Assembly: GCA_965215515.1 (NCBI GenBank)
Contig: OZ244057.1
Location: 448,001-512,000 of the forward strand
Length of the DNA: 64,000 nucleotides
Reading direction: 5' to 3'
DNA from: Oligoflexales bacterium
Lineage (GTDB): Bacteria > Bdellovibrionota_B > Oligoflexia > Oligoflexales > JAPPIL01
Shown: positions 1 through 11,485 of the stretch, in pieces
Layout: each line of letters starts with the position of its first letter
How positions within the stretch are numbered: the first letter of the stretch is position 1
Program-made: the position numbers and the translations under genes
Notes under the pieces: generated by a model
What the model was told of the DNA's origin: nothing
Database searches by the model: none
Seen by the model: the letters and a program-made list of their open reading frames with translations, nothing else

Positions 1-2459
1 ATTTTTTCTTCGTTAAGTCCCAACAAAAACTCGACATAATGGTTGGAAAAAAGATTTTCTATATATTCCCTGATTTCAATGACATTTTTATCTTGATTCT
101 CTTCTTGTGATATCACAACCTTTTCTTTTTTAGTGATAGTAAAAAGAAATAGTGCATGGTAGTAAACAGTCATGAAATAATTTTTCTCATTCATTTTAAT
201 TTTTTCTTCACTGGGATTTTTGTCTTTGTGGTTAAACTTTTTGAATACTGAACTATCCATATTAATGAATATTTGTTCTAGCTTGTCATCAACAAGTAAG
301 TACACTACCTTGTTGTAATCCATAGTCCCGCCCATGTTTTCTATATCACTCCAGCATTTAGCTTTTGAGTCGTTATCGTTCTCCTTGTAAACTCTCACTG
401 CCGGTGGCAACTTCAAATTAGCGGAATTAGTCTCTGTTCTTCTTGGTGTCTTTTGTAGGGCAGCAGTGGGTTCGCTTATCTTCACCCAAAAAATTTCGTC
501 AAACTCTCCTTCAGGAGCGTTAGGGCTGCTTAGGCTCACCTTAATTTTTGCCTCATCACCAACCATGAGCTGCTTGTTGGGTGATAAGTGAAGTTTTATC
601 TTGCCCTCTTGTGGGCTGCTCTTCGTTACAGTGAAAACATCCTCAATCTTTTCTGCTCTTCCTGTAGTGCAATCACTATCAGTATCGTTAGAGTTAAAAT
701 CAAGCAAGCCAACATCCATATTGCCAGCCTCTTCAACACGATCAAAATAATTGTTTTCCACATCGGTATCGAAATAAATAGTTTTCTCACCTCCTCGTGG
801 CACACTCACTGCATTAGTATCGTCACGTTTGCTGCGAAGCTTGAAATGTGCGGGAAAACGTTGGGGAGAAAATGGTTTCTCATCTTCGTGTCGCTTCTTT
901 TTTATAGTTTTATAGGTGGGAAATATATCCCTACCCGCCTTACTTTTACCTGACTTTATAACTTGACTACACAGCCTTGCCAGTTCTTCACTCAACGGCA
1001 GATTGTGTGAAGTGGATTCGATTAGCTCCTCATTACCCTCATTGCCTGAAACAATAGATGCTTTACGCCGCTCTGAAATTTCTTTTAAACGTCCATCTTT
1101 GAGCTCACTTTTAAGAAACTCTCGCAGCTTTTTAGTTTCTTCACCGCCCTTCAGACGATCACGGGAAGCCATAAACAGCTCATCACGAAAACTTCTTTGC
1201 ACATCAGTGCAATCAACGTGAATGAGAAGATAGTCATTGAGCAAGTTCATCTTCAGCGACATGCTGATGAACTCACTAGTGAGATGGCCATGTACTTGAC
1301 CGTTGATAGAGAACAGTACTGACATGTTGTTCTTAAAAAACTCTCGTCGTATACTTTCTTTGGATTCTTTAGCGGTTTTGCCATCAATTTTTGCTTTAAA
1401 CACATAGCAGGTAATCTTTGTTGCTCCGATAGTCCTGTTACTCAAGCTAAGTGAAAAACTATCTTCAACATATTTATTCCCTTCCTCTTCCTCACTATTC
1501 TTGTCTCTGTTATCGCCCTTTTTTTCAAGCTTTCTCTTTAGACCATACAAGCCTCTCTTTAGGCTACTTTTAGGGTAACGTTCTTCCTTTTCAATGGTAT
1601 AAACAGGCAGAACAGGTTCAAATAGGTACTCGTTGATGCTTGCATTGAGGTCTCTAGATATATCAGATATTCCTTTAAGGGTGTAGGAATATAACTTGAT
1701 GATTGTGCCAGTAGTGAAGCTTCTCTTGAATAAGTTCAGCTCAAGGGTATCTACCGCAAAAGATGGTATTTCACCGTCAATTTTAAGGTATTCATACCAA
1801 GTATTTTTCTTGTTTTTCTCCTCTTCTGCAGTCATAGGGTGCTTTCTGATCAAGGTGAAGCCAAACTTGCCAGTGTCATCATATTTTTTTGAACCGATCA
1901 ATTGATAGCGTTTTTTGCCACAAAAGACGATAGCACCACTGCCACCCATATTGTATTTACCTTGCACAAACTGAATTTCATTCTTGTTGCCACGCACTAG
2001 AGACAGAAACGTATTCTCAAAATCATCTGGGTGCTGTCCTTCACCATCATCGTAAATTATCAAAGATGTGTCTCTCCTCTTCCCATCCGCTAATATTTGG
2101 ATATTCTCTGCCTGCTTATTTCTATTTTCAGTTAGATCCCAGTCCTTATATTCAGGGAAAAATTTTTCCTTTGCCTCTATCATCGACTGAGGAGCGTCTT
2201 TAGATTTGGGGTCAATACCTGCCTCTAAACATTTTTTAGTAAGCACTGCATCAATTGAGTTGGTGATTTTTTCTATCAATGCCGCTACAGGGTTAGCTTG
2301 CTGGTTCTCTACAATGCCATAGTTATTATCATTTCCACCGAGTGGCTGCCAATTACAGTCTGGCAATGCGTCAATGCTTTGCACAACCTTATCAACATCA
2401 GCTTCAGTGCCAGCGAAGTAGAGACGATTGAAAAGATCTTTCAATTCAGATTCTTGCAT
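1..2459 (-). CDS. Large GHKL (HATPase_c / prokaryotic MORC-like) ATPase, >819 aa, 3' end outside window
   Basis: Absent from the ORF track, apparently because no stop lies in the window. Hand translation from ATG 2459 gives MQESELKDLFNRLYF... with Bergerat-fold motifs EKITNSIDA, IYDDGEG, QGKYNMGGSG and TGTIIKLY. The same frame is still open at position 1 (..ENLFSNHYVEFLLGLNEEK). Confidence 0.75.
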   Translation of the reverse strand, partial: MQESELKDLFNRLYFAGTEADVDKVVQSIDALPDCNWQPLGGNDNNYGIVENQQANPVAALIEKITNSIDAVLTKKCLEAGIDPKSKDAPQSMIEAKEKFFPEYKDWDLTENRNKQAENIQILADGKRRDTSLIIYDDGEGQHPDDFENTFLSLVRGNKNEIQFVQGKYNMGGSGAIVFCGKKRYQLIGSKKYDDTGKFGFTLIRKHPMTAEEEKNKKNTWYEYLKIDGEIPSFAVDTLELNLFKRSFTTGTIIKLYSYTLKGISDISRDLNASINEYLFEPVLPVYTIEKEERYPKSSLKRGLYGLKRKLEKKGDNRDKNSEEEEGNKYVEDSFSLSLSNRTIGATKITCYVFKAKIDGKTAKESKESIRREFFKNNMSVLFSINGQVHGHLTSEFISMSLKMNLLNDYLLIHVDCTDVQRSFRDELFMASRDRLKGGEETKKLREFLKSELKDGRLKEISERRKASIVSGNEGNEELIESTSHNLPLSEELARLCSQVIKSGKSKAGRDIFPTYKTIKKKRHEDEKPFSPQRFPAHFKLRSKRDDTNAVSVPRGGEKTIYFDTDVENNYFDRVEEAGNMDVGLLDFNSNDTDSDCTTGRAEKIEDVFTVTKSSPQEGKIKLHLSPNKQLMVGDEAKIKVSLSSPNAPEGEFDEIFWVKISEPTAALQKTPRRTETNSANLKLPPAVRVYKENDNDSKAKCWSDIENMGGTMDYNKVVYLLVDDKLEQIFINMDSSVFKKFNHKDKNPSEEKIKMNEKNYFMTVYYHALFLFTITKKEKVVISQEENQDKNVIEIREYIENLFSNHYVEFLLGLNEEK

Positions 2460-2486
2460 CTTGATAGCCTATCTTAATAGGTCTCC

Positions 2487-2513
2487 TTATCGTCATAATT
2501 TATGTAAAACTTA
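2487..2513 (-). promoter_or_regulatory. sigma28-like promoter upstream of the GHKL ATPase
   Basis: TAAG-N15-GACGATAA on minus strand vs consensus TAAA-N15-GCCGATAA. Confidence 0.4.
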
Positions 2514-2683
2514 ACATTGTTGTTAAAAAGTAGAGATTTCAAATTGTTAGACGATAAATAATCTTCTCCCTACGAGTAAACCCTCTTATTCCACACTTCC
2601 TGTTTCGGCAAGATTATTGTGTGATTTCTCATGAAAATAGTCTTTTATATTCAGTATGTTATGGTTAAAAAATACATGAAACT

Positions 2684-2710
2684 TTACTTTTTGGCAGAAT
2701 TATCCGATAA
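2684..2710 (+). promoter_or_regulatory. sigma28-like promoter upstream of abiEi
   Basis: TTAC-N15-TCCGATAA, followed by AGGAGG RBS before GTG 2729. Confidence 0.35.
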
Positions 2711-2728
2711 TAGGTGTAGGAGGTTGTT

Positions 2729-3331
2729 GTGAAAAGGAAGACATCGCTACAAATGATGCAGGATGCTCTCAAGCCTGGCGGGGTATATCGTCGCTCCGAT
2801 TTTACTAAGCTGTCGTCTAACGTAGACCGAGACTTAGCCCAGCTGGTTGAGAACCGCAGTCTTCAGAGATTGCAACGTGGTATCTACCTATGTCCAAAAC
2901 ATACGATTTTTGGTCAAGACATACCAGACGAGAAAAAACTGCTATACAAGTTTCTGAATGACAATCGGTTTATTGTCTACAGCCCTTGCATGTTCAATAT
3001 GCTTGGGTTCGGCACTACCCAGCTGTATAATAAAGTAGTTGTTCTCAACTACAAAAGACAAGGCAAAATAGCAGTTGGCGATCGCGTTTTCTTTTTTCGC
3101 CGTCGCAAAAGAGTGCCTCGTACTGCAACCAAAGAATTTTTGTTAGTAGAAATGCTCAACTGTCGTTATGAGCTAGCCGAGGACATGCCGTGGGTTATAG
3201 GAAATATGCAGAAGCAATTACACCGATTTGATCGCAAGCTTCTTAAACGATCCGCTAAACTTTTTGGCAAAAGATCAACCCAAAAAACTGTAACACAACT
3301 CCTACAAGGACAGATACGTGTATCTCCATAA
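2729..3331 (+). CDS. AbiEi-like type IV antitoxin / wHTH regulator
   Basis: N-terminal wHTH-like segment (..LQRLQRGIY), NMLGFGTTQ motif; overlaps the downstream nucleotidyltransferase gene. Confidence 0.7.
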   Translation: MKRKTSLQMMQDALKPGGVYRRSDFTKLSSNVDRDLAQLVENRSLQRLQRGIYLCPKHTIFGQDIPDEKKLLYKFLNDNRFIVYSPCMFNMLGFGTTQLYNKVVVLNYKRQGKIAVGDRVFFFRRRKRVPRTATKEFLLVEMLNCRYELAEDMPWVIGNMQKQLHRFDRKLLKRSAKLFGKRSTQKTVTQLLQGQIRVSP

Positions 3332-4283
3332 CCGCAAGGACTTCAAAACCATAGTTAGATTATCTGCCGCTAAAAATAACGTCTTCAACCCCTATTTAGC
3401 AGAAAAAGACTACTGGATTATGCATTGCTTGCACAGCCTTTCATGTCTTGGTTTGCAGTTAGAACTAAAGGGGGGCACGTCTCTATCAAAGGGCTATGGC
3501 ATAGTTGAAAGATTTTCAGAAGATATTGACATAAAAATAGAGCCTGATGAACCTGTAACAGGTCTTAAGGTATACACAGGTAAAAATCACGACAAGAAAG
3601 CACACCGTCAGTCTAGAAAAAATTATTTTGATTGGCTTGCACGTGCTTTACATGGCAAAATTAATGGCATAACTAGTGTTGCAAGAGCTGAAAGCCTTGA
3701 CGACAAAAAGTTCAGAAACGGTGCTATTTTGTTGAGTTACAAATCACATTTCCGCGAAATAGAAGGGATAAGGCCTACCATCCTTCTAGAGGTTGGCTTT
3801 GACAAGACAGTTCCCAACAGCAAAAGAGACATCACTTCGTGGACTTTTGATGAAGGGCACGCCGCATTAGGTGATGCTATTACCGATAACAGAGCAAAGA
3901 ATATGCTCTGTTACGACCCAAGATATACGTTTGTGGAAAAACTGCAAGCAATTGTCAGCAAATACACTACATATAAAAATAACAAGCATGGTGTCAATCT
4001 TCCCAACAATTTTTTACGTCACTACTACGATATCTACTATTTGTTAGGAGTAAAAGAAGTTGTAAATTTTATTAATACTGATGAGTATAAGCGATACAAG
4101 CAAGAACGTTTCCGAAGTCATGACACTGTTATTAAGAATTGCGAGGGATTTAGTCTCAAAGATACCGAAGAGCGGAAAATATTCATGCACAGCTATCAAA
4201 CATCATCTGCTCTCTACTATAAAGGGCAGATCCCACTTGACAAAATACTAAAAAGAATCGCTGACTTTCTTCACATCCTCTAG
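3318..4283 (+). CDS. AbiEii/AbiGii-family nucleotidyltransferase toxin
   Basis: EKDYW, LKGGTSLSK, RFSEDID, EKL and RHYYD motifs. Confidence 0.9.
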   Translation: MYLHNRKDFKTIVRLSAAKNNVFNPYLAEKDYWIMHCLHSLSCLGLQLELKGGTSLSKGYGIVERFSEDIDIKIEPDEPVTGLKVYTGKNHDKKAHRQSRKNYFDWLARALHGKINGITSVARAESLDDKKFRNGAILLSYKSHFREIEGIRPTILLEVGFDKTVPNSKRDITSWTFDEGHAALGDAITDNRAKNMLCYDPRYTFVEKLQAIVSKYTTYKNNKHGVNLPNNFLRHYYDIYYLLGVKEVVNFINTDEYKRYKQERFRSHDTVIKNCEGFSLKDTEERKIFMHSYQTSSALYYKGQIPLDKILKRIADFLHIL

Positions 4284-4459
4284 CTGAGTGATTGCTTTGA
4301 TTTGCATGTTTCTGCCTCTCCTACCCACAATTTGTGTAAAAATTAAATTTATTGCTAAAAAAATAATCATATCAAACCACTAGACTATATTTATTGCTTT
4401 TGCCGACTTTATTTTCCATAGTGAAATATTAGGGCTAATTTAACAATTTATGGCGAGGC

Positions 4460-5281
4460 ATGATGAGCTATCTTAATGTTGAAGAGCAGGCACGCCACAT
4501 CGTTTCGTTGTCAGGGGGTAAGGACTCGACTGCACTAGCGGTGTATTTGAAAAACAAAATCCCCAACTTGGAGTATGTTTTTTGTGATACGGGGGCTGAG
4601 TTGGTCGAAACCTATGATTATTTGGATCGGGTCGAATCTTATTTGGAACGCAAGATTGTGCGCCTCAACAGCGGCAAGACGTTTGAGGAATTTCTCGATA
4701 AGCACCGCCAGTTTTTGCCTTCGCCACAGGCGCGTTGGTGTACGGCAGAGATGAAAATCAAGCCGTATGAGGACTATATCGGCAAAGATCGCTGCTACTC
4801 CTACATTGGCATTCGTGCTGATGAGCGGCGGGGTGGCTATATCTCTAGGCTACCGAACATCACGCCTGTATATCCATTCAAAGATGATGGCATCAATCGG
4901 GCAGGTGTTTACAAAATTCTGGAGGATTCAGGGCTAGGATTGCCAAAGTATTACGAATGGCGGTCACGTTCAGGTTGCTATTTTTGTTTTTTTCAGCGTA
5001 CCATTGAATGGGTTGGCTTGCTGGAGAGGCATCCCCAGCTATTTGCTAAAGCTGAAGAGTTTGAGCGACAGGGTTATGCAGGTGATGACGTAAAATTTAC
5101 GTGGGTGCAAGGAAGAACACTTGACTGGATCAGAGAAAACAAGGATAAGATCAAGGAATCGCACCGCATGAGGATGGAGAAGGCAGCTGCGATGCGGAAG
5201 AGCACTAATATTCACGATGTGTTTGCCGAAGCTACCGATCAGGAAACGGCCACCAAGCCTTGTGATATATGTGAGATATGA
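4460..5281 (+). CDS. PAPS-reductase family protein, SspD/DndC-like
   Basis: PP-loop SGGKDS, FCDTG, RWCT..K, GIRADE, RSGCYFCFFQ, C-terminal CxxC; 273 aa. Confidence 0.8.
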   Translation: MMSYLNVEEQARHIVSLSGGKDSTALAVYLKNKIPNLEYVFCDTGAELVETYDYLDRVESYLERKIVRLNSGKTFEEFLDKHRQFLPSPQARWCTAEMKIKPYEDYIGKDRCYSYIGIRADERRGGYISRLPNITPVYPFKDDGINRAGVYKILEDSGLGLPKYYEWRSRSGCYFCFFQRTIEWVGLLERHPQLFAKAEEFERQGYAGDDVKFTWVQGRTLDWIRENKDKIKESHRMRMEKAAAMRKSTNIHDVFAEATDQETATKPCDICEI

Positions 5282-6750
5282 CTACTGCTGACGGCGAGCG
5301 TACCATTCACAGAGGGAGAACAGCTATTGAACGCCATTCCTGTTCGCAGCCAGTCAGACTTGCCTTGCGTGATGCGATCATCAGGCGTGAGTTAAGTTTC
5401 TTTGATTATGGCTGTGGTCGTGGGGCTGACGTATCTTTTCTCGCGACTCAAGGTGTGGCGGCGAATGGCTACGATCCTTGTTTTTTTCCACAAGCCCCTA
5501 AGACTGCTGCCCATGTCGTTAATCTTGGCTACGTTATCAATGTCATCGAAGACCATACCGAGCGTATCTCAGTGATCAAAGATGCCTTTGCTCTTGCCCA
5601 ACTGTGCCTAATCGTTGCAGCACAAACAAAGGCCGCGGCTATCAGTGGTGCAGCTGTTTTCAATGATGGCTATGTCACCAAGCGCAACACTTTCCAAAAG
5701 TACTACGGTCAGAACGAGCTACGTGACTTACTGCACAAGGTGCTGAACATTACTCCTTACCCCGCGGGGCCTGGTATCTTCTATATTTTCAAGGACGAGA
5801 AGGCACGCAATACTTATCTCGCAGTGAGATATGACTCGACAAGGTTGTTGCGTTTCAACAGCAACCGCACGTGGCAACGTCAACAGGTGCAAGAGTTACG
5901 GGAACAACGGTTGCAAAATTCTGACGCAGCTGGTCCGCTAATTGAATGGGTTAGCATACATGCTCGTTTTCCTACTGATTTTGAGTTTCCAGCACTAGAC
6001 AAAATCCTTGCTCTAGGAATATCATATAAATTTTTGCAAGAGTGGGTCTTTGCTAATCTCGATCAAGAAATTTTGGCAACCACACGTAAGATTCGGCAAC
6101 AAGATATTCTGCTAATGCTTGCTTTGACACGTTTTGAAGGAAGACCTAAGCTAAGTGCCTTGCCTGACAGGGCCAGACATGACATCAAATCTTTTTTCAA
6201 CAGCTACCAGAATGCCTGTGAAGAGGCTGACCGTTTGCTGTTCAGTGTTGGCAAGGTTGATACGATTCGCCAAGCAATTGAACAAGCAACAGTAGGCAAA
6301 AAACTTCCTGACAGCCTCTATGTGCATACTTCCGCCGTCCCCTACTTACCCTTGGCCTTGCAGGTCTTTGTCGGTTGTGGGCGTGCTGTTGTCGGTGATA
6401 TGGAGGGTGACGTAATTGTAAAAATTCTCAAAAAGGCAACTTCGGTGTCTTTTTTGCTTTACCGCAACTTTGACACCGACCCACACCCAGAACTGTTATT
6501 GTCAACGAAGGTTGATTTGCGCAGTGGACACTCCTACCCACGTGATTACAGCAAATCGGATAATCCGCCCATACTGCATCGCAAGGAAACCTTCGTCACC
6601 AAAGACTACCCACACTATGAAGAATTTTGTCGTACTACAGCACACGAAGAAAAACTTGGCTTGCTGAGCAGAAACGGCATTGGCTTTCGCAAAAGCTGGC
6701 AGAGGTTACTCACCGAAATCAGCGAGGGCAATCAGCCGCCCACTGCTTAA
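5278..6750 (+). CDS. DNA phosphorothioation-associated putative methyltransferase (TIGR04096-like)
   Basis: RTAIER..S.PV, SAM motif FDYGCGRGAD, VNLGYVINVIED, TFQKYY, NPPILHRKETF; ATGA overlap with upstream gene. Confidence 0.85.
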   Translation: MTTADGERTIHRGRTAIERHSCSQPVRLALRDAIIRRELSFFDYGCGRGADVSFLATQGVAANGYDPCFFPQAPKTAAHVVNLGYVINVIEDHTERISVIKDAFALAQLCLIVAAQTKAAAISGAAVFNDGYVTKRNTFQKYYGQNELRDLLHKVLNITPYPAGPGIFYIFKDEKARNTYLAVRYDSTRLLRFNSNRTWQRQQVQELREQRLQNSDAAGPLIEWVSIHARFPTDFEFPALDKILALGISYKFLQEWVFANLDQEILATTRKIRQQDILLMLALTRFEGRPKLSALPDRARHDIKSFFNSYQNACEEADRLLFSVGKVDTIRQAIEQATVGKKLPDSLYVHTSAVPYLPLALQVFVGCGRAVVGDMEGDVIVKILKKATSVSFLLYRNFDTDPHPELLLSTKVDLRSGHSYPRDYSKSDNPPILHRKETFVTKDYPHYEEFCRTTAHEEKLGLLSRNGIGFRKSWQRLLTEISEGNQPPTA

Positions 6751-6799
6751 GTGCGCTCTTGCTCCATCCACCAATTGTAGACAGCATCGGGGCACAATT

Positions 6800-8071
6800 C
6801 TATCCATCCGTCCAGCCAAGCCAATCCTCCGCGAGCGTTTCCCACACTGCATGCCCAAGCCGTTCACCTCTTTTCTTGATAGCTTCGTCGTTGAGGTGGT
6901 TGTTTTTGTCGAGATAGCTATCACCATAGGAAATTACCTCTCTCAAGATTTCAAGATAAGGCATACCATCACCAGTGTCTTTCCTCTCTAGGCATTGTTC
7001 GTATATTCTTCTTTTGGAGACAAAGTTTTCTTTCCCTGCTTTGGCGTTAATCTTTTGTGGAAGCAGAACTAAGTTGCCAATTCTGTTGATTGTCTTGTAG
7101 CTTTGTGGGACAATGTGCTCTATCGATTTGTAGTCATATTCTTCATAGTTTTGTATAGTGAGAAACTTCAATTTTGATTTTACAAAAGCTTGTGTTTCTG
7201 GGTCAAAATGCATTTTATGAAATGCAACAAACAAAACAAACCTCGTAAATTTTATTCGCTTATAGATGTTAATGTCTGCGAATTCTTTAATCCACTCTCC
7301 TCTAGTCATATCTCTATTTTTCCATTTCTTTAGTAGACATTTTCTGAGCTCGTTTCTTAATCCAGCAGCATCGTAGCCTTCACGAAAGAGAGCTTCTGTA
7401 ATATTTTTGTACTGGTTATCTATTCTATCTGTACCAGCGTCAGCAGCAACCCCACGCCAAAGACAGCTAAATGCAGCACATGCCTTGACTACCTCGTCTC
7501 TCTCCCTATTTTCTGCAAATTTAAACAGGATAGGAATGACTCTGTCATGAGCTATGGACTTCAGAAATTCAAAGCAGACGGCGGCTTCTCCAGTCGTAAA
7601 TATACTTTTACCGTTCGCTTTTTCCCAGTTGTTTTCTATAATAAAGTTATGGATATCACAAATACTGTCAATGTAATCCGGAATTTTATCTTCCATCTCA
7701 TTTGATATTTTATCGAGAATAACTCTCTTATCACGTAGACTAGTGAATTTATCTGTATTCAACTCCTCATGCATCATGCTTAGGAACAGAAGCAATCTAT
7801 CTGTGTACTTGTTCTGTTTGTTTTTTTTCATTTTCATATTACTAAGTGATGTTTCAACTTTATTTAGCCGATCTGCTATTTTTTCCTTTTGTGTCTTTTT
7901 GTAAATACGAGATTTTAGCATTTCAAATGCAGTTAGTGGCTCTCCTGTTGAGTTGAAGGTATTGAATATATCAATAGCATAGTCCTCAGAAAGCTCGCCT
8001 TGAACAACAAGAAAGCAAAACTGTGATCTGTCAAGAACATACGAGGCATATTTTAGAAAATCACCTCCCAT
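6800..8071 (-). CDS. C-terminal part of SspE/GmrSD-like protein (end of DUF262 plus DUF1524 HNH-type nuclease)
   Basis: EDYAIDIFNTFNSTGEPLTAFE; SIEHIVPQ...IGNLVLL...N. Confidence 0.8.
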   Translation of the reverse strand: MGGDFLKYASYVLDRSQFCFLVVQGELSEDYAIDIFNTFNSTGEPLTAFEMLKSRIYKKTQKEKIADRLNKVETSLSNMKMKKNKQNKYTDRLLLFLSMMHEELNTDKFTSLRDKRVILDKISNEMEDKIPDYIDSICDIHNFIIENNWEKANGKSIFTTGEAAVCFEFLKSIAHDRVIPILFKFAENRERDEVVKACAAFSCLWRGVAADAGTDRIDNQYKNITEALFREGYDAAGLRNELRKCLLKKWKNRDMTRGEWIKEFADINIYKRIKFTRFVLFVAFHKMHFDPETQAFVKSKLKFLTIQNYEEYDYKSIEHIVPQSYKTINRIGNLVLLPQKINAKAGKENFVSKRRIYEQCLERKDTGDGMPYLEILREVISYGDSYLDKNNHLNDEAIKKRGERLGHAVWETLAEDWLGWTDG

Positions 8072-8076
8072 TTCTT

Positions 8077-8685
8077 CTATTTCTTCCCCAAAAATACTGG
8101 GTATTTTAAAAATACTGGGTATTTTTTTGCATCGATGTTGGTTATTTCATTACTCTTAAAAAGATATTTCAGAATATCTGCTTCAAGAGCTAGAGCGCTA
8201 TCATGTTCGACACTGCGCTCCCTTTCCAGTCTTTCAGTGGTGGATAAGGCGTTACAAATAGTATCAACTATTTTTTCCTCTTCAATCTTTTTTCTAATTA
8301 AAATTTCCTTTTTGTTATTATCAGTTTCCTGCTCTATGGTCTCTTTGAGATGTTGTCCCCCCGAAGTAAGTTCTTTTTTAATAAGCTTCAACAAAATTAA
8401 AAATGAAGTTATCCTCTGCTGTCCATCAATCAGAATATATTTCTTCTCCATGCGTCTTCCTTCAACTTTCTCTGCCACAATTATTGAGCCAAAGAATGCT
8501 GGTAAATTTTGTTCTTTGCTATCTCTTATGGTTGTCATTAAATCTTTAAAATTTTCACTAATCCACGAATAAGGTCGCTGATAGACAGGAATGATAAAAC
8601 GATTTTTGAGAATTTCCCTTAGCGAAATAAGTCTTGAGTTCCTGTTTTCGTTCTCTACGATAATTATTTCTGCTTCACTACTCAC
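8077..8685 (-). CDS. N-terminal DUF262 part of the same gene (frameshifted; pseudogene or recoded)
   Basis: IPVYQRPYSW, FFGSII, LIDGQQR; DUF262 motifs continue in another frame at 8071. Confidence 0.8.
   Translation of the reverse strand: MSSEAEIIIVENENRNSRLISLREILKNRFIIPVYQRPYSWISENFKDLMTTIRDSKEQNLPAFFGSIIVAEKVEGRRMEKKYILIDGQQRITSFLILLKLIKKELTSGGQHLKETIEQETDNNKKEILIRKKIEEEKIVDTICNALSTTERLERERSVEHDSALALEADILKYLFKSNEITNIDAKKYPVFLKYPVFLGKK
8090..8125. repeat. Perfect 18-bp tandem duplication overlapping a T7 run (8122-8128)
   Basis: aaaaatactgggtatttt x2. Confidence 0.95.
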
Positions 8686-8884
8686 CCCTCCGCCCCTTCC
8701 TATTTAATTACAATCAAATCACTCCCCGTGATCGGAAGATTGCGTTATTTCTTTAGTGGCAGTATTTGCCTGGTCTGTGTGATTTAGATTGGATGTCTTA
8801 TCATTCTTGCCTGCCCAGCCCTGTTGGGAGAAGCATCTACAACCCCTGCGCGGACATTTTGCAGTGGTGCTGCGACGACCCCGA

Positions 8885-9331
8885 TTATTCAGCTAGCACG
8901 TCAGGGAACACAGTTATCTCCCCCCGCACATCGTAAAGACAGAGATCGAAACGGCAATGATCGACATCAGGTTGGTGCGCGTTAAGAAAATGTTGTGCGC
9001 CACGCCTTAACGCCTTACGCTTGCGTGGAGTAATGAACTCAACTAGAGGGCGCGTCACGTCGCGCTGTCGTGCCTTGACCTCGATAAAAACCAAGTTACG
9101 TGCTTGGCGAGCGACGAGATCTATCTCAAACCCCCTACCACGATAATTACGTGCCAACACCTGCCAACCACGCGCCACCCACCACTCCGCAACCGCATCT
9201 TCGCCTTCACGAGCACGCCGATGCCAGGAAATCCTTGATGGGTGCGAAGTTACGGCGGTGCAGGGGGCAGATACCGTGGGCGCGGATTTTTTGGAGATGC
9301 AGACGTGTGCCATAACCGACATGCCGCTCAA
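8885..9331 (-). CDS. yraN: YraN family (UPF0102) protein; start uncertain
   Basis: LARNYR...EIDLVA..LVFIEVKAR, RFD; downstream of rnhB. Confidence 0.9.
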   Translation of the reverse strand: MSGMSVMAHVCISKKSAPTVSAPCTAVTSHPSRISWHRRAREGEDAVAEWWVARGWQVLARNYRGRGFEIDLVARQARNLVFIEVKARQRDVTRPLVEFITPRKRKALRRGAQHFLNAHQPDVDHCRFDLCLYDVRGEITVFPDVLAE

Positions 9332-10255: not shown

Positions 10256-11485
10256 TCAGATTTTTCCGTAGACACCGAAACCGAAACTGTGGCTTGTCTG
10301 ATCCTCCGTCTCGCTGTCTTCTTCACCCCAGTCAGGATCGAGCTTGTGCATCTCCATCGTGTAGCGGAGATAAGGAATAAGCTTGTCATCCACGCAATTG
10401 ATTTCCATCCCAGCATCGAACACCATCATGTTGGTGGCGTACTTCTGGTAGTATTTGAGATCTTCGTAGCCCCCTTTGTGACCAGCAAACGTCGCTTCGA
10501 GCTTTTTCTCGTACGAGGTGTCCATCTGACCGTTATCGGTCTCGTCACCGTCGCCAGGAGTCATGAAGTTGCCTTCAATACCCGCCCGATCGTCATTGCT
10601 CGCGGTCAGCAGCGACAAACTCGCCCACGGTGCGAACATGCCATACTCGTAGCTAAGACCCGCCGTGTAGTTGCGATAGACGGTAGTGGTGGGATCTTCC
10701 TTGCCGCCGTCTTTGTTCTTGCGGTTGTCATGAATGTAATCGAGATGCACCGTCAAGTCGTGCAACGCAAGCTTCAAACCTGCTGTCAATAACCACGACT
10801 GCCACCTGTTGTTGGCCTCATCGTCATCGTCATTGCTGGCTTTGAAGTCATACATAGAAAACTGCAACAGAGGCGAGACCACTCCGAAGTCACCCCTGTA
10901 TTGCAAGTGACCAGTTATCGCCTCGTCGTCGTTATACCAACGCTTGTCGTCGTCGCTTGCCCTCACATCACTGCTAACCATCAACGACAACTCACCAAAA
11001 CCCTCGATCGGAGCGAAGATCCTTACCATCGGAGCATAAGTAGGGAAGGGGTTGTGGTAGCTCAGGTAGGGGGAAAGATACTCCTGCCAACCAGCGACAG
11101 CTAGCGCATCTCTACCGACCGCAACGCTCAAGTAACTGCGGGGCAAATCAGCGGTCACCCTAGCGACCTCCAACGGTGTCCTCCCTTCGTGATTCAACTT
11201 GACGAGGTTTAAGCTGAGACGCACCTTGATGTCATCCCACTTCTTACGGTAATGAACCGTGGCATCGTAAAGATCATGCTTGATCGCCCTGACTTTGAAA
11301 TCACCATCATCGTCGGTGTCTCGTCCAAGGTTTTCGTCGGTGACATACACACCCCAGTCGTACTCAAACTTAAACTTTTTCTTCCGTTTCTTGTCGTCCT
11401 CGCTACCAGCATCGGCATGGGCAAGCGAAGCCAGGCCAAAGACAAGGGTGGTGATCAGAAAACGCATAACTTCTCTCCTACACAA
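10256..11485 (-). CDS. Putative outer-membrane beta-barrel / porin-like protein
   Basis: Signal peptide (LASLAHA), amphipathic strands, acidic loops, terminal strand SFGFGVYGKI. Confidence 0.55.
   Translation of the reverse strand: MCRREVMRFLITTLVFGLASLAHADAGSEDDKKRKKKFKFEYDWGVYVTDENLGRDTDDDGDFKVRAIKHDLYDATVHYRKKWDDIKVRLSLNLVKLNHEGRTPLEVARVTADLPRSYLSVAVGRDALAVAGWQEYLSPYLSYHNPFPTYAPMVRIFAPIEGFGELSLMVSSDVRASDDDKRWYNDDEAITGHLQYRGDFGVVSPLLQFSMYDFKASNDDDDEANNRWQSWLLTAGLKLALHDLTVHLDYIHDNRKNKDGGKEDPTTTVYRNYTAGLSYEYGMFAPWASLSLLTASNDDRAGIEGNFMTPGDGDETDNGQMDTSYEKKLEATFAGHKGGYEDLKYYQKYATNMMVFDAGMEINCVDDKLIPYLRYTMEMHKLDPDWGEEDSETEDQTSHSFGFGVYGKI

Follow-up and report, generated by a model that had tools for sequence, protein, structure and literature searches.

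The far half of a complete, twice interrupted Ssp phosphorothioation island with a frameshifted sspE in an Oligoflexales bacterium

The SspABCD-SspE system, reportedly described by Xiong et al. in 2020 from Vibrio cyclitrophicus (strain FF75) and from Escherichia coli (strain 3234/A), is a defence that senses DNA phosphorothioation (PT). According to the accessible parts of two publications, PT in the studied Vibrio and E. coli Ssp systems is a single-strand modification at 5'-CpsCA-3' (PMC8092258, PMC12914056). Here, we describe positions 4460-8685 of a 64,000-nucleotide stretch of an Oligoflexales genome (the window). This region belongs to an ordinary Ssp island that is complete, of which it makes up the far half, and does not represent a new minimal system. 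The account that joins our observations, and which we hold to be very probable, is that a single SspABCD-SspE PT island, complete and gained by horizontal transfer, has its distal half here, its operon being split twice by defence-type cassettes, its sspE broken and its methyltransferase (MT) an optional PT companion. The gene order is sspA-sspB-sspC, a convergent GHKL-ATPase gene, abiEi-abiEii, sspD-MT and a convergent sspE. In the window the following features are found (coordinates, strand, assignment):

1-2459, minus: GHKL (HATPase_c_3) ATPase gene, 5' part, 819 of 826 codons; Pfam HATPase_c_3 E 4.9e-6
2460-4392: insert bearing abiEi and abiEii, private to this genome when compared with the island of G049; blastn gap
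2729-3331, plus: abiEi, antitoxin/regulator of the AbiE pair; PADLOC AbiEi E 8.3e-63, profile positions 2-190 of 191; Pfam DUF6088
3318-4283, plus: abiEii, nucleotidyltransferase toxin of the AbiE pair; PADLOC AbiEii E 3e-60; Pfam AbiEii E 3.3e-28
4460-5281, plus: sspD, ATP pyrophosphatase of the PP-loop type (PAPS-reductase fold) in the Ssp PT writer; PADLOC PDLC02782 SspD E 3.5e-104, profile positions 1-276 of 277; Pfam PAPS_reduct E 1e-10
5278-6750, plus: TIGR04096 putative methyltransferase (MT), 490 aa; NCBIfam 456.9 bits (cut-off 150), E 7.9e-137, profile positions 2-466 of 478
6800-8146, minus: sspE, distal frame (DUF262 end, linker, DUF1524/HNH nuclease domain); PADLOC SspE PDLC02792 E 4e-49, profile positions 295-697 of 771; Pfam GmrSD_C E 3.6e-9, GmrSD_N positions 156-198
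8077-8685, minus: sspE, proximal frame (N-terminal part of DUF262, DGQQR included); Pfam GmrSD_N E 3.7e-22, profile positions 3-137 of 199
8090-8125, no strand: 18-bp perfect tandem duplication inside sspE; repeat search
8122-8128, minus: A7 run, point of the sspE frame change; alignment with orthologues

The E-values of the sspD, MT, abiE and nuclease matches lie far past chance level. As originally predicted, a PP-loop PAPS-reductase gene, which the profiles assign to SspD, is coupled via ATGA (5278-5281, an overlap of 4 nt) to a TIGR04096-like methyltransferase gene, and abiEii is the gene directly upstream of sspD. It is preceded by abiEi with an overlap of 14 nt, both genes being full-length by profile. 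The predicted DUF262-DUF1524 nuclease has SspE-type domains and converges on MT but is represented by two ORFs in different frames instead of one gene. This frameshift was missed by the original prediction.

The module was also said to be without sspA, sspB, sspC or dnd genes. For the ssp genes this is true inside the window only, and the reason is where the window starts. A profile search upstream of it detected all three in the same low-GC island at genome positions 442,253-447,965, i.e. 0.04-5.7 kb before window base 1, with the last base of the block 35 bases short of it. They encode SspA (PADLOC E 1.9e-95; Aminotran_5 E 1.6e-57), SspB (E 4.7e-67; DUF4007 E 6.9e-74) and SspC (E 2.1e-143), with sspB and sspC occupying 443,383-447,965, 4.5-9 kb upstream of sspD. 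The absence of dnd genes was borne out for dndC and dndD, neither of which was found by profile search in the whole genome.

The island would span about 15 kb, from about genome position 441,500 to window position 8,700, and its GC content is 0.37-0.49 vs 0.51-0.60 outside. In G047, a genome of the same genus, sspA-B-C-D-MT are contiguous, sspE is intact and convergent to them, and abiE is absent, and G049 from the same family shows this arrangement plus the GHKL gene between sspC and sspD, again with intact sspE and without abiE. G048, also of the same genus, is devoid of any Ssp genes. At the DNA level the island is 76-79% identical to that of G049, window 2460-4392 standing out as a clean gap where the blastn blocks end at 2459 (island position 10459) and restart at 4393 (12393). 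The GHKL-ATPase gene, which ends at genome position 447,979, 14 bases past the sspC stop, has a 77%-identical orthologue at the same place in G049. It has no PADLOC or NCBIfam match and falls in the ESM Atlas into an uncharacterised family of ~800 aa. The ancestral form would thus have been that of G047. As in G049, the GHKL-ATPase gene would then have inserted between sspC and sspD and subsequently, in this genome, the 1.9-kb abiEi/abiEii cassette would have landed between the GHKL gene and sspD. GHKL and abiE, ~4.5 kb in all, now separate sspC from sspD, and sspBCD, contiguous in G047, is not one operon here.

A minimal writer composed of SspD and MT requires a genome without sspB and sspC. 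The original prediction, which had put forward such an undescribed two-gene writer, had itself named their presence elsewhere in the genome as its refutation and, since both were found, this candidate was rejected. Its second reading, a remnant or split Ssp locus, was correct as regards a split locus, relatives showing the uninterrupted form. It is extremely improbable that SspD and MT work autonomously as a DNA-modification writer of two genes that is paired with the nuclease and does without SspB and SspC. Such a reading could draw on the start-stop overlap of 4 nt, which is kept in 3/3 genomes of this family (G047 and G049 included), and on sspD-MT being its own transcription unit apart from sspABC in G049 and in this genome. 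However, sspABC lies in the same island and in G047 is contiguous with sspD-MT, SspB occurs in all four MT-positive genomes of the phylum, and sspBCD is treated, in the accessible part of the source, as minimal gene set for PT synthesis (PMC12914056). Moreover, in other lineages MT follows dndE, sspA or an SspFGH-like block and therefore is not tied to SspD. MT does not stand in for SspB or SspC.

The broken sspE comprises the ORFs 8077-8685(-) and 6800-8071(-). Its proximal frame stops at TAG 8079-8077, whereas the distal frame is open from 8146 with the first ATG at 8071. In the alignment frame 1 follows the orthologues to 'IDAKK' and frame 2 from 'IPSIF' on. The lesion is a -1 frameshift (vs the orthologues' frame) in the A7 run beside the 18-bp duplication. 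The latter, lacking in both orthologues, puts an extra KIPSIF into the distal frame. Contigs from four runs (three samples, one study; depth up to 87.6) agree exactly in the sequence of the lesion, and in this genome sspE is the sole DUF262 locus. The intact orthologues of G047 and G049 have SspE models as best matches (E 4.9e-53 and 2.1e-59), but at 625-649 aa all three proteins fall short of the PADLOC SspE profiles, which have 749-797 positions, and other DUF262 families (HEC-06, Orf5) give the N-terminal piece better scores. The DUF262 NTPase and the DUF1524 nuclease, which in Ssp reside in one polypeptide, are both recognisable here in two frames.

It is unlikely that SspE is still made, whether because the A-run causes -1 slippage of ribosomes or in transcription, because this run undergoes phase variation or because two polypeptides cooperate. 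The site reads A AAA AAA in the proximal frame, slippage by -1 is known for this shape, and a -1 shift at the run gives exactly the orthologues' sequence, but the fold of 106 nt around it is not convincingly better than shuffles (z -1.68; 9/200 as good). The distal frame is intact, with an ATG six bases past the stop. Against a product speak the A7 in the contigs of all four runs, though contigs drop rare variants, the position of the cut within DUF262 (Pfam positions 3-137 vs 156-198) and the single uninterrupted frame of both orthologues.

For sspA, B, C, D and MT the ORFs have their full length, the profiles match from end to end and the motifs are intact. SspB (DUF4007) and SspC are found together with an SspD of the SGGxDS type and the cysteine desulfurase SspA (replaceable by IscS). 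In SspD the PP-loop SGGKDS at residues 18-23 is intact and the C-terminal cysteines are present, both being invariant in an alignment of 48 sequences. Among 131 genomes of the phylum SspB was found in five, SspD in six and MT in four, and all five genomes with full-length SspD are also SspB-positive. By analogy with the described systems SspA would supply persulfide sulfur, SspB, SspC and the PP-loop enzyme SspD would jointly place single-strand PT in DNA, and SspE would need PT-DNA to turn on its NTPase and then nick incoming DNA. With five writer or accessory ORFs intact and sspE frameshifted in DUF262, the gene sequences suggest that the island most likely still marks DNA, with the SspE restriction arm lost or strongly reduced. 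With sspE broken, defence by the island may be absent altogether.

The writer itself could be silent because sspD-MT is separated from the promoter of sspABC and none of the promoter-like sites lies in 4284-4459 on the plus strand, upstream of sspD (18 such sites in the region vs 13.8 +/- 3.6 expected). We consider it rather unlikely that the whole island is a decaying remnant, with the writer also silent or inactive and stop codons merely not yet accumulated. The sspE frameshift with its 18-bp duplication, the twice interrupted operon, the lack of a convincing promoter upstream of sspD and the Ssp-free genome G048 would agree with decay, but hardly the full length and intact motifs of sspA-D and MT. 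In addition, G049 has retained the split order together with an unbroken sspE, so that being split does not preclude maintenance. Its homology restarts 67 bp upstream of the sspD start and the proximal upstream region is therefore kept, and the still open distal sspE frame of 423 codons points to a recent lesion.

The MT gene encodes the short form of TIGR04096 with a single C-terminal domain, whereas many cyanobacterial members have ~680-810 aa and a second copy of this domain in front. The family is large and uncharacterised, and the earlier statement that its function is not established is consistent with our literature searches, in which no study of TIGR04096 was found. Residues ~9-175 form a class I SAM methyltransferase domain (model vs class I methyltransferases: Z 14.4, rmsd 2.8, 145 aligned), followed by a helical region at ~265-325 whose HTH-like match is weak (Z 7.1, 59 residues). 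The fold search with the models (pLDDT 85 and 92.9) gave no solved-structure match for the alpha/beta domain at ~340-490. Across 56 sequences the SAM motif DYGCGxGxD (here DYGCGRGAD), D66 and further residues do not vary. MT is a predicted SAM-binding class I methyltransferase. DNA amino- or C5-methyltransferases of R-M systems would be recognised by a catalytic motif IV ((D/N/S)PP(Y/F/W)) or the PC motif and by a DNA methyltransferase as closest fold. In MT, N82-L-G84-Y85 at the end of the fourth strand, invariant or nearly so, presumably resembles NxPY motifs. Its top 50 fold neighbours are small-molecule, peptide or tRNA methyltransferases; the nearest solved folds belong to small-molecule and not to DNA methyltransferases, which speaks against a DNA-directed enzyme.

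Judged from its distribution, MT is a conserved, optional companion of Ssp- and Dnd-type PT writers. It occurs in 59/64 cyanobacterial genomes with dndC or sspB vs 4/137 without (n=201) and in 4/5 SspB-positive vs 0/126 SspB-negative genomes of the phylum, both being raw counts uncorrected for relatedness. Its optional character is seen in G053, where Ssp is present without MT, in G047 with an internally deleted MT copy, and in Acidobacteriota, where 4/6 DndC-positive genomes are without MT. A neighbourhood survey of 80 genome loci revealed dnd genes in 63, ssp genes in four and neither in 13. Among eight plasmid contexts four have sspBCD, and on two plasmids MT ends sspABCD plus SspFGH-like operons.

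That MT is just an unrelated passenger of defence islands with no functional tie to PT is improbable. In the accessible part of PMC12914056, methyltransferases beside PT genes are said to be ones that 'may function independently'; on three of the eight plasmids (H9, H11, H17) the annotation shows no PT writer genes close to MT, on H7 only an SspFGH-like block, and the acidobacterial genome G442 has MT without DndC or SspB. A passenger would hardly show the contrast between writer-positive and writer-negative genomes in Cyanobacteria and in the phylum given above, nor the conserved translational coupling to sspD, nor co-occurrence with dndC at a distance, >100 kb of the same contig lying between the two in 15 of those 56 cyanobacterial genomes that have both. 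As regards the role of the companion, our best guess, made purely by inference, is that MT would be directed at DNA, depend on SAM and set a second mark on, or act upon, PT-bearing DNA. More specifically, and only as a tentative possibility with the odds against it, MT could be a PT-dependent third activity that recognises PT-bearing DNA, perhaps via the C-terminal domain of ~150 residues that is doubled in long forms, and methylates a nearby base or the PT sulfur itself. Such dependence would explain the near-absence of MT from writer-less genomes even when it is encoded megabases away, as well as its coupling to sspD here, and methylation would then be a second layer of self-marking or serve PT turnover.

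Compared with known systems, the adjacent abiEi and abiEii correspond to the AbiE type IV toxin-antitoxin or abortive-infection pair but form a cassette of their own, which inserted into the Ssp island and is absent from G049 and G047. BrxP of BREX type 4 is, according to the accessible part of the source, a fusion of PAPS-reductase and DUF4007 (PMC12914056). SspD and SspB weakly match its halves (E 3.8e-11 and 9.5e-8) and SspC matches BrxC (E 4.6e-47), but here the genes are separate and their best matches are Ssp models by hundreds of bits. With DndABCDE the island shares the MT family, which follows dndE in those 63 of the 80 genome loci, while this genome is without dndC or dndD. The same family ends operons of the SspABCD-SspFGH type on the two plasmids mentioned (the type as given in the accessible part of PMC8092258), whereas the island contains no FtsK-type SspH gene. 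Relative to TIGR04096 (dnd_rel_methyl, 'DNA phosphorothioation-associated putative methyltransferase') there is no family-level difference, MT being a full-length match beside PT genes. From SspABCD-SspE the island differs by 4.5 kb of foreign genes between sspC and sspD, the frameshifted sspE, an SspE ~130 residues shorter than the PADLOC profiles and the extra TIGR04096 gene coupled to sspD, but it has SspA, SspB (DUF4007), SspC, SspD and a convergent DUF262/DUF1524 SspE in one island in common with it.

The supposed novel minimal modification system proved to be a standard Ssp island that is cut by the window edge. The original prediction had described an SspD-like gene coupled to a putative methyltransferase gene and facing an SspE-like nuclease gene, with abiEii upstream and without sspA, sspB or sspC, and had offered as explanations either an undescribed minimal writer or a split Ssp locus. 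Called ORFs and profile matches bear out sspD, the methyltransferase gene (MT, family TIGR04096), abiEii and the convergent DUF262/DUF1524 gene as described; an unbroken nuclease gene (there is a frameshift) and the absence of sspA, sspB and sspC from the genome could not be upheld. All three genes are located directly upstream of the window edge, where a whole-genome search placed DUF4007 (SspB) at genome 443,389-444,237 and SspC at genome 444,285-447,761. The presence of sspB and sspC in the source genome, named in advance as the finding that would decide against a novel minimal writer, refutes this reading, and the split locus was the right alternative, with sspABC and sspD-MT residing in one island.

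Main genes of the island, in order (window coordinates unless stated otherwise)
Upstream of the window: sspA, 377 aa; SspA profile E 1.9e-95, Aminotran_5 E 1.6e-57 (ORF calling in the upstream 16 kb)
Upstream of the window: sspB, 289 aa; SspB profile E 4.7e-67, DUF4007 E 6.9e-74
Upstream of the window: sspC, 1238 aa; SspC profile E 2.1e-143
1-2459 and on to genome 447,979, minus strand: GHKL ATPase gene (HATPase_c_3), first 819 codons at 3-2459
2729-3331: abiEi, upstream of abiEii
3318-4283: abiEii, the gene upstream of sspD
4460-5281, plus strand: sspD; PADLOC PDLC02782 E 3.5e-104 (profile positions 1-276 of 277), Pfam PAPS_reduct E 1e-10
5278-6750, plus strand: MT, 490 aa, overlapping the sspD stop by ATGA; NCBIfam TIGR04096, 456.9 bits (cut-off 150)

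The genes sspA, sspB and sspC are joined by 4-nt overlaps, and 35 bases separate the end of sspC from window base 1. Low GC (0.37-0.49, compared with 0.51-0.60 on either side) extends over the stretch between roughly genome 441,500 and window 8,700, and the whole is therefore a single foreign island of about 15 kb. Neither a tRNA gene nor flanking direct repeats were found at its ends. A gene of the YraN/UPF0102 family (8885-9331, minus strand) lies at the right edge, at which GC rises abruptly from about 0.39 to about 0.60. The PP-loop of SspD (SGGKDS) is intact. Assignment of this gene to BrxP of BREX type 4 (39.9 bits) or to DndC (23.6 bits) was rejected on score against 346.4 bits for SspD, and neither dndC nor dndD was found in the source genome. 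Scans of window 2300-9000 for regulatory signals gave 18 promoter-like sites (13.8 +/- 3.6 expected) and eight terminator-like sites (5.9 +/- 2.1 expected), neither of them above chance.

Among 131 genomes of the phylum SspB was detected in five and SspD (E <= 1e-20) in six. TIGR04096 exceeds its cut-off in four of the 131, all of them SspB-positive, namely the source genome (G000), a relative of the same genus (G047), one of the same family (G049) and a further genome of the phylum (G059). MT is optional, as another genome of the phylum (G053) has Ssp without it. In G047 the order sspA-B-C-D-MT is contiguous and the convergent sspE is intact (638 aa). In G049 sspA-B-C is followed by a GHKL gene convergent on sspC and then by sspD-MT, again with an intact sspE (636 aa). 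The 4-nt overlap of sspD and MT is kept in the source genome and in both relatives. The three islands lie in different chromosomal surroundings, and within the DNA compared the flanks of the source island (accD-like, YraN and others) were not found beside the other two.

Comparison with these relatives also accounts for the genes between sspC and sspD. The GHKL gene (826 aa) lies on the strand opposite to sspC and ends 14 bases past it; among the 131 genomes it was found only in G000 and G049, at this position in both and with 77% identity. Its product has no PADLOC or NCBIfam match and falls in the ESM Atlas into an uncharacterised family of about 800 aa, seen most often in Bacteroidota and Bacillota. 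The gene may act in defence by itself or serve the Ssp writer as a second partner. The DNA of the source island is 76-79% identical to that of G049, and the match is broken exactly at window 2460-4392, i.e. by a clean 1.9-kb insertion of abiEi and abiEii in the short stretch separating the GHKL gene from sspD, of which 67 bp of conserved sequence remain before sspD. Because G049 has the GHKL gene but no abiE anywhere in its island, and G047 has neither, we infer from these arrangements that insertion of the GHKL gene preceded that of the abiE cassette. Both appear to be separate passengers of the island, which also illustrates how defence cassettes settle within each other's operons and the operons are not destroyed by it.

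The nuclease arm is damaged in the source genome. The gene that converges on MT from the opposite strand has SspE as its best PADLOC family and is the sole DUF262 locus of this genome, and it is cut inside this very domain (Pfam positions 3-137 versus 156-198). Its proximal ORF (8685-8077, minus strand) is closed by a TAG; the distal reading frame, open from 8146 on, contains an ATG at 8071. In an alignment with the intact orthologues, agreement holds in the first frame up to IDAKK and in the second from IPSIF onward. The frame change therefore falls within the A7 run (8122-8128), which has one A fewer than the orthologues' frame requires. The other of the two lesions, which lie within 40 bp and are both foreign to the orthologues, is a perfect 18-bp tandem duplication at 8090-8125. 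Contigs assembled independently from four runs are identical over 6800-8700 (0 differences, depth up to 87.6), so a slip of a single assembly is not the cause; these runs are from three samples of one study that is possibly the window's own source, and such contigs hide rare variants. In frame the A7 site has the slippery shape A AAA AAA, as would suit an SspE still produced by read-through or by phase variation of the run, but the RNA fold past it is not convincing as frameshift stimulator (z -1.68), and we regard continued production as improbable.

All Ssp writer genes are present in the island, their motifs intact; MT is coupled to sspD as an accessory gene, and the nuclease gene is in two pieces. 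According to the accessible parts of PMC8092258 and PMC12914056, SspA mobilises sulfur, single-strand phosphorothioation (PT) is installed by SspB, SspC and SspD (CpsCA in the systems studied) with sspBCD as minimal set for PT synthesis, and PT-DNA activates SspE, which nicks invading DNA. By analogy with these roles published elsewhere, the writer would still mark DNA with PT and the SspE arm would be lost, since the writer genes are complete and sspE is cut; the source genome thus probably has a still-marking island without this arm.

The presence of the MT family follows that of PT writers, Ssp and Dnd types alike, very closely. In a biased set of 80 genome loci with MT, nearly all cyanobacterial and many closely related, dnd genes are found directly upstream in 63 (typically dndC-D-E-MT) and ssp genes in four; in the other 13 neither was detected within the flank. 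Eight plasmid contexts out of 38 matching records were examined, with sspBCD on four, an SspFGH-like block alone on one and no annotated PT genes on three (PLSDB annotation is incomplete). On two of the four sspBCD plasmids sspABCD is followed by a three-gene SspFGH-like block and then by MT. These two plasmids, from Methylobacterium (L125, 2442-19377) and Azospirillum (L126, 907-17844), carry an eight-gene operon of sspA-B-C-D, two hypothetical genes, a gene of about 1780 aa with FtsK/SpoIIIE domain, and MT as the last gene, the block between sspD and MT being called SspFGH-like by size and annotation.

Among 201 evenly sampled cyanobacterial genomes MT is present in 63, DndC (E <= 1e-30) in 57 and SspB in 24. 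Expressed as raw counts that ignore kinship, MT occurs in 59 of 64 genomes with DndC or SspB and in four of 137 without either. MT and DndC coincide almost perfectly across this sample, also at a distance: 56 genomes have both, with a spacing of at most 15 kb in 13 of them, of over 100 kb on a single contig in 15, and with the two genes on separate contigs in the remaining 28. The 15 genomes with distant pairs (0.3-3.7 Mb apart; G140, G152, G161, G173, G206, G209, G218, G224, G276, G282, G288, G300, G310, G330 and G332) mostly have the long two-domain form of MT, and short forms tend to adjoin the 3' side of dndE. Among 201 genomes of Acidobacteriota, sampled with an MT-positive genome as seed, only two of the six with DndC also have MT, and of the three with MT one lacks both DndC and SspB (raw counts). 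Two genes following MT in Nostocaceae were rejected as partners; they are pieces of an MFS transporter and probably reflect plain synteny. Plasmid pSYSM of the model cyanobacterium Synechocystis sp. PCC 6803 (L118, 8434-10506) encodes a 690-aa family member that adjoins an HNH endonuclease gene, with a cysteine desulfurase gene 2 kb away. Only one of 50,697 phage records matches MT, and only over residues 328-486: this record, LR745208.1 of an uncultured jumbo phage (485 kb), has the C-terminal domain without the rest of MT (186131-186646, 36% identity, E 2e-16). A search of metagenomes for sequences close to MT gave 79 pattern matches, none of them confirmed by tblastn.

The TIGR04096 family is large: of 8,000 candidates scored, at least 4,512 proteins match at E <= 1e-3. 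In the AlphaFold model of MT (pLDDT 85, pTM 0.81) residues 9-175 are predicted to form a class I SAM methyltransferase core, with small-molecule, peptide and tRNA methyltransferases as best fold matches (Z 14.4, rmsd 2.8, 145 residues aligned; Foldseek E about 1e-3). Across the aligned family no variation occurs in the SAM loop DYGCGRGAD or in D66, and little or none in N82-L-G84-Y85, where strand 4 ends; this stretch may resemble the NxPY motif of amino-methyltransferases. Helical residues 265-325 weakly resemble a TetR-type HTH (VIA-align, Z 7.1 over 59 residues, a range rated common). The alpha/beta domain at about residues 340-490 is covered by none of the VIA-align matches listed. For the C-terminal part, modelled alone (pLDDT 92.9), Foldseek gave no usable match in the PDB (best E 0.21) and the ESM Atlas a best score of 0.80, which is at noise level; matches of the MT profile to PDB sequences are limited to the methyltransferase core (E >= 0.02). 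This is no proof of a new fold, because one domain can fill such lists. Long cyanobacterial forms have a second copy of the C-terminal alpha/beta domain at the N-terminus. The short MT of G047 (362 aa; L101, 14117-15205) matches TIGR04096 positions 2-182 and 300-464, having lost positions 183-299 (linker and helical region) with the frame kept, and its end overlaps that of sspE by 4 nt.

The function of this methyltransferase family had been called not established, and this agrees with our literature searches, in which no paper studying TIGR04096 was found. The family is not treated in the accessible parts of the PT papers PMC10853773, PMC12914056 and PMC8092258; those of PMC12914056 mention a methyltransferase beside dnd genes and state that such methyltransferases "may function independently". 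With modest confidence we suggest for MT a putative DNA-directed function that requires SAM and is tied to DNA bearing PT, because MT depends on PT writers at genome level, may have an HTH and a motif-IV-like feature, and is also encoded on plasmids. PMC8092258 points out, in the part accessible, that no more than 10-15% of PT sites carry the modification, and asks what else separates self from non-self. Being so tightly tied to PT, MT is an obvious candidate for this additional factor.

Compared with known systems, the locus of the source genome belongs to the SspABCD-SspE systems and differs from them in two respects: its sspBCD genes do not form a single operon and its SspE is not intact. 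Its methyltransferase is a plain member of NCBIfam TIGR04096.
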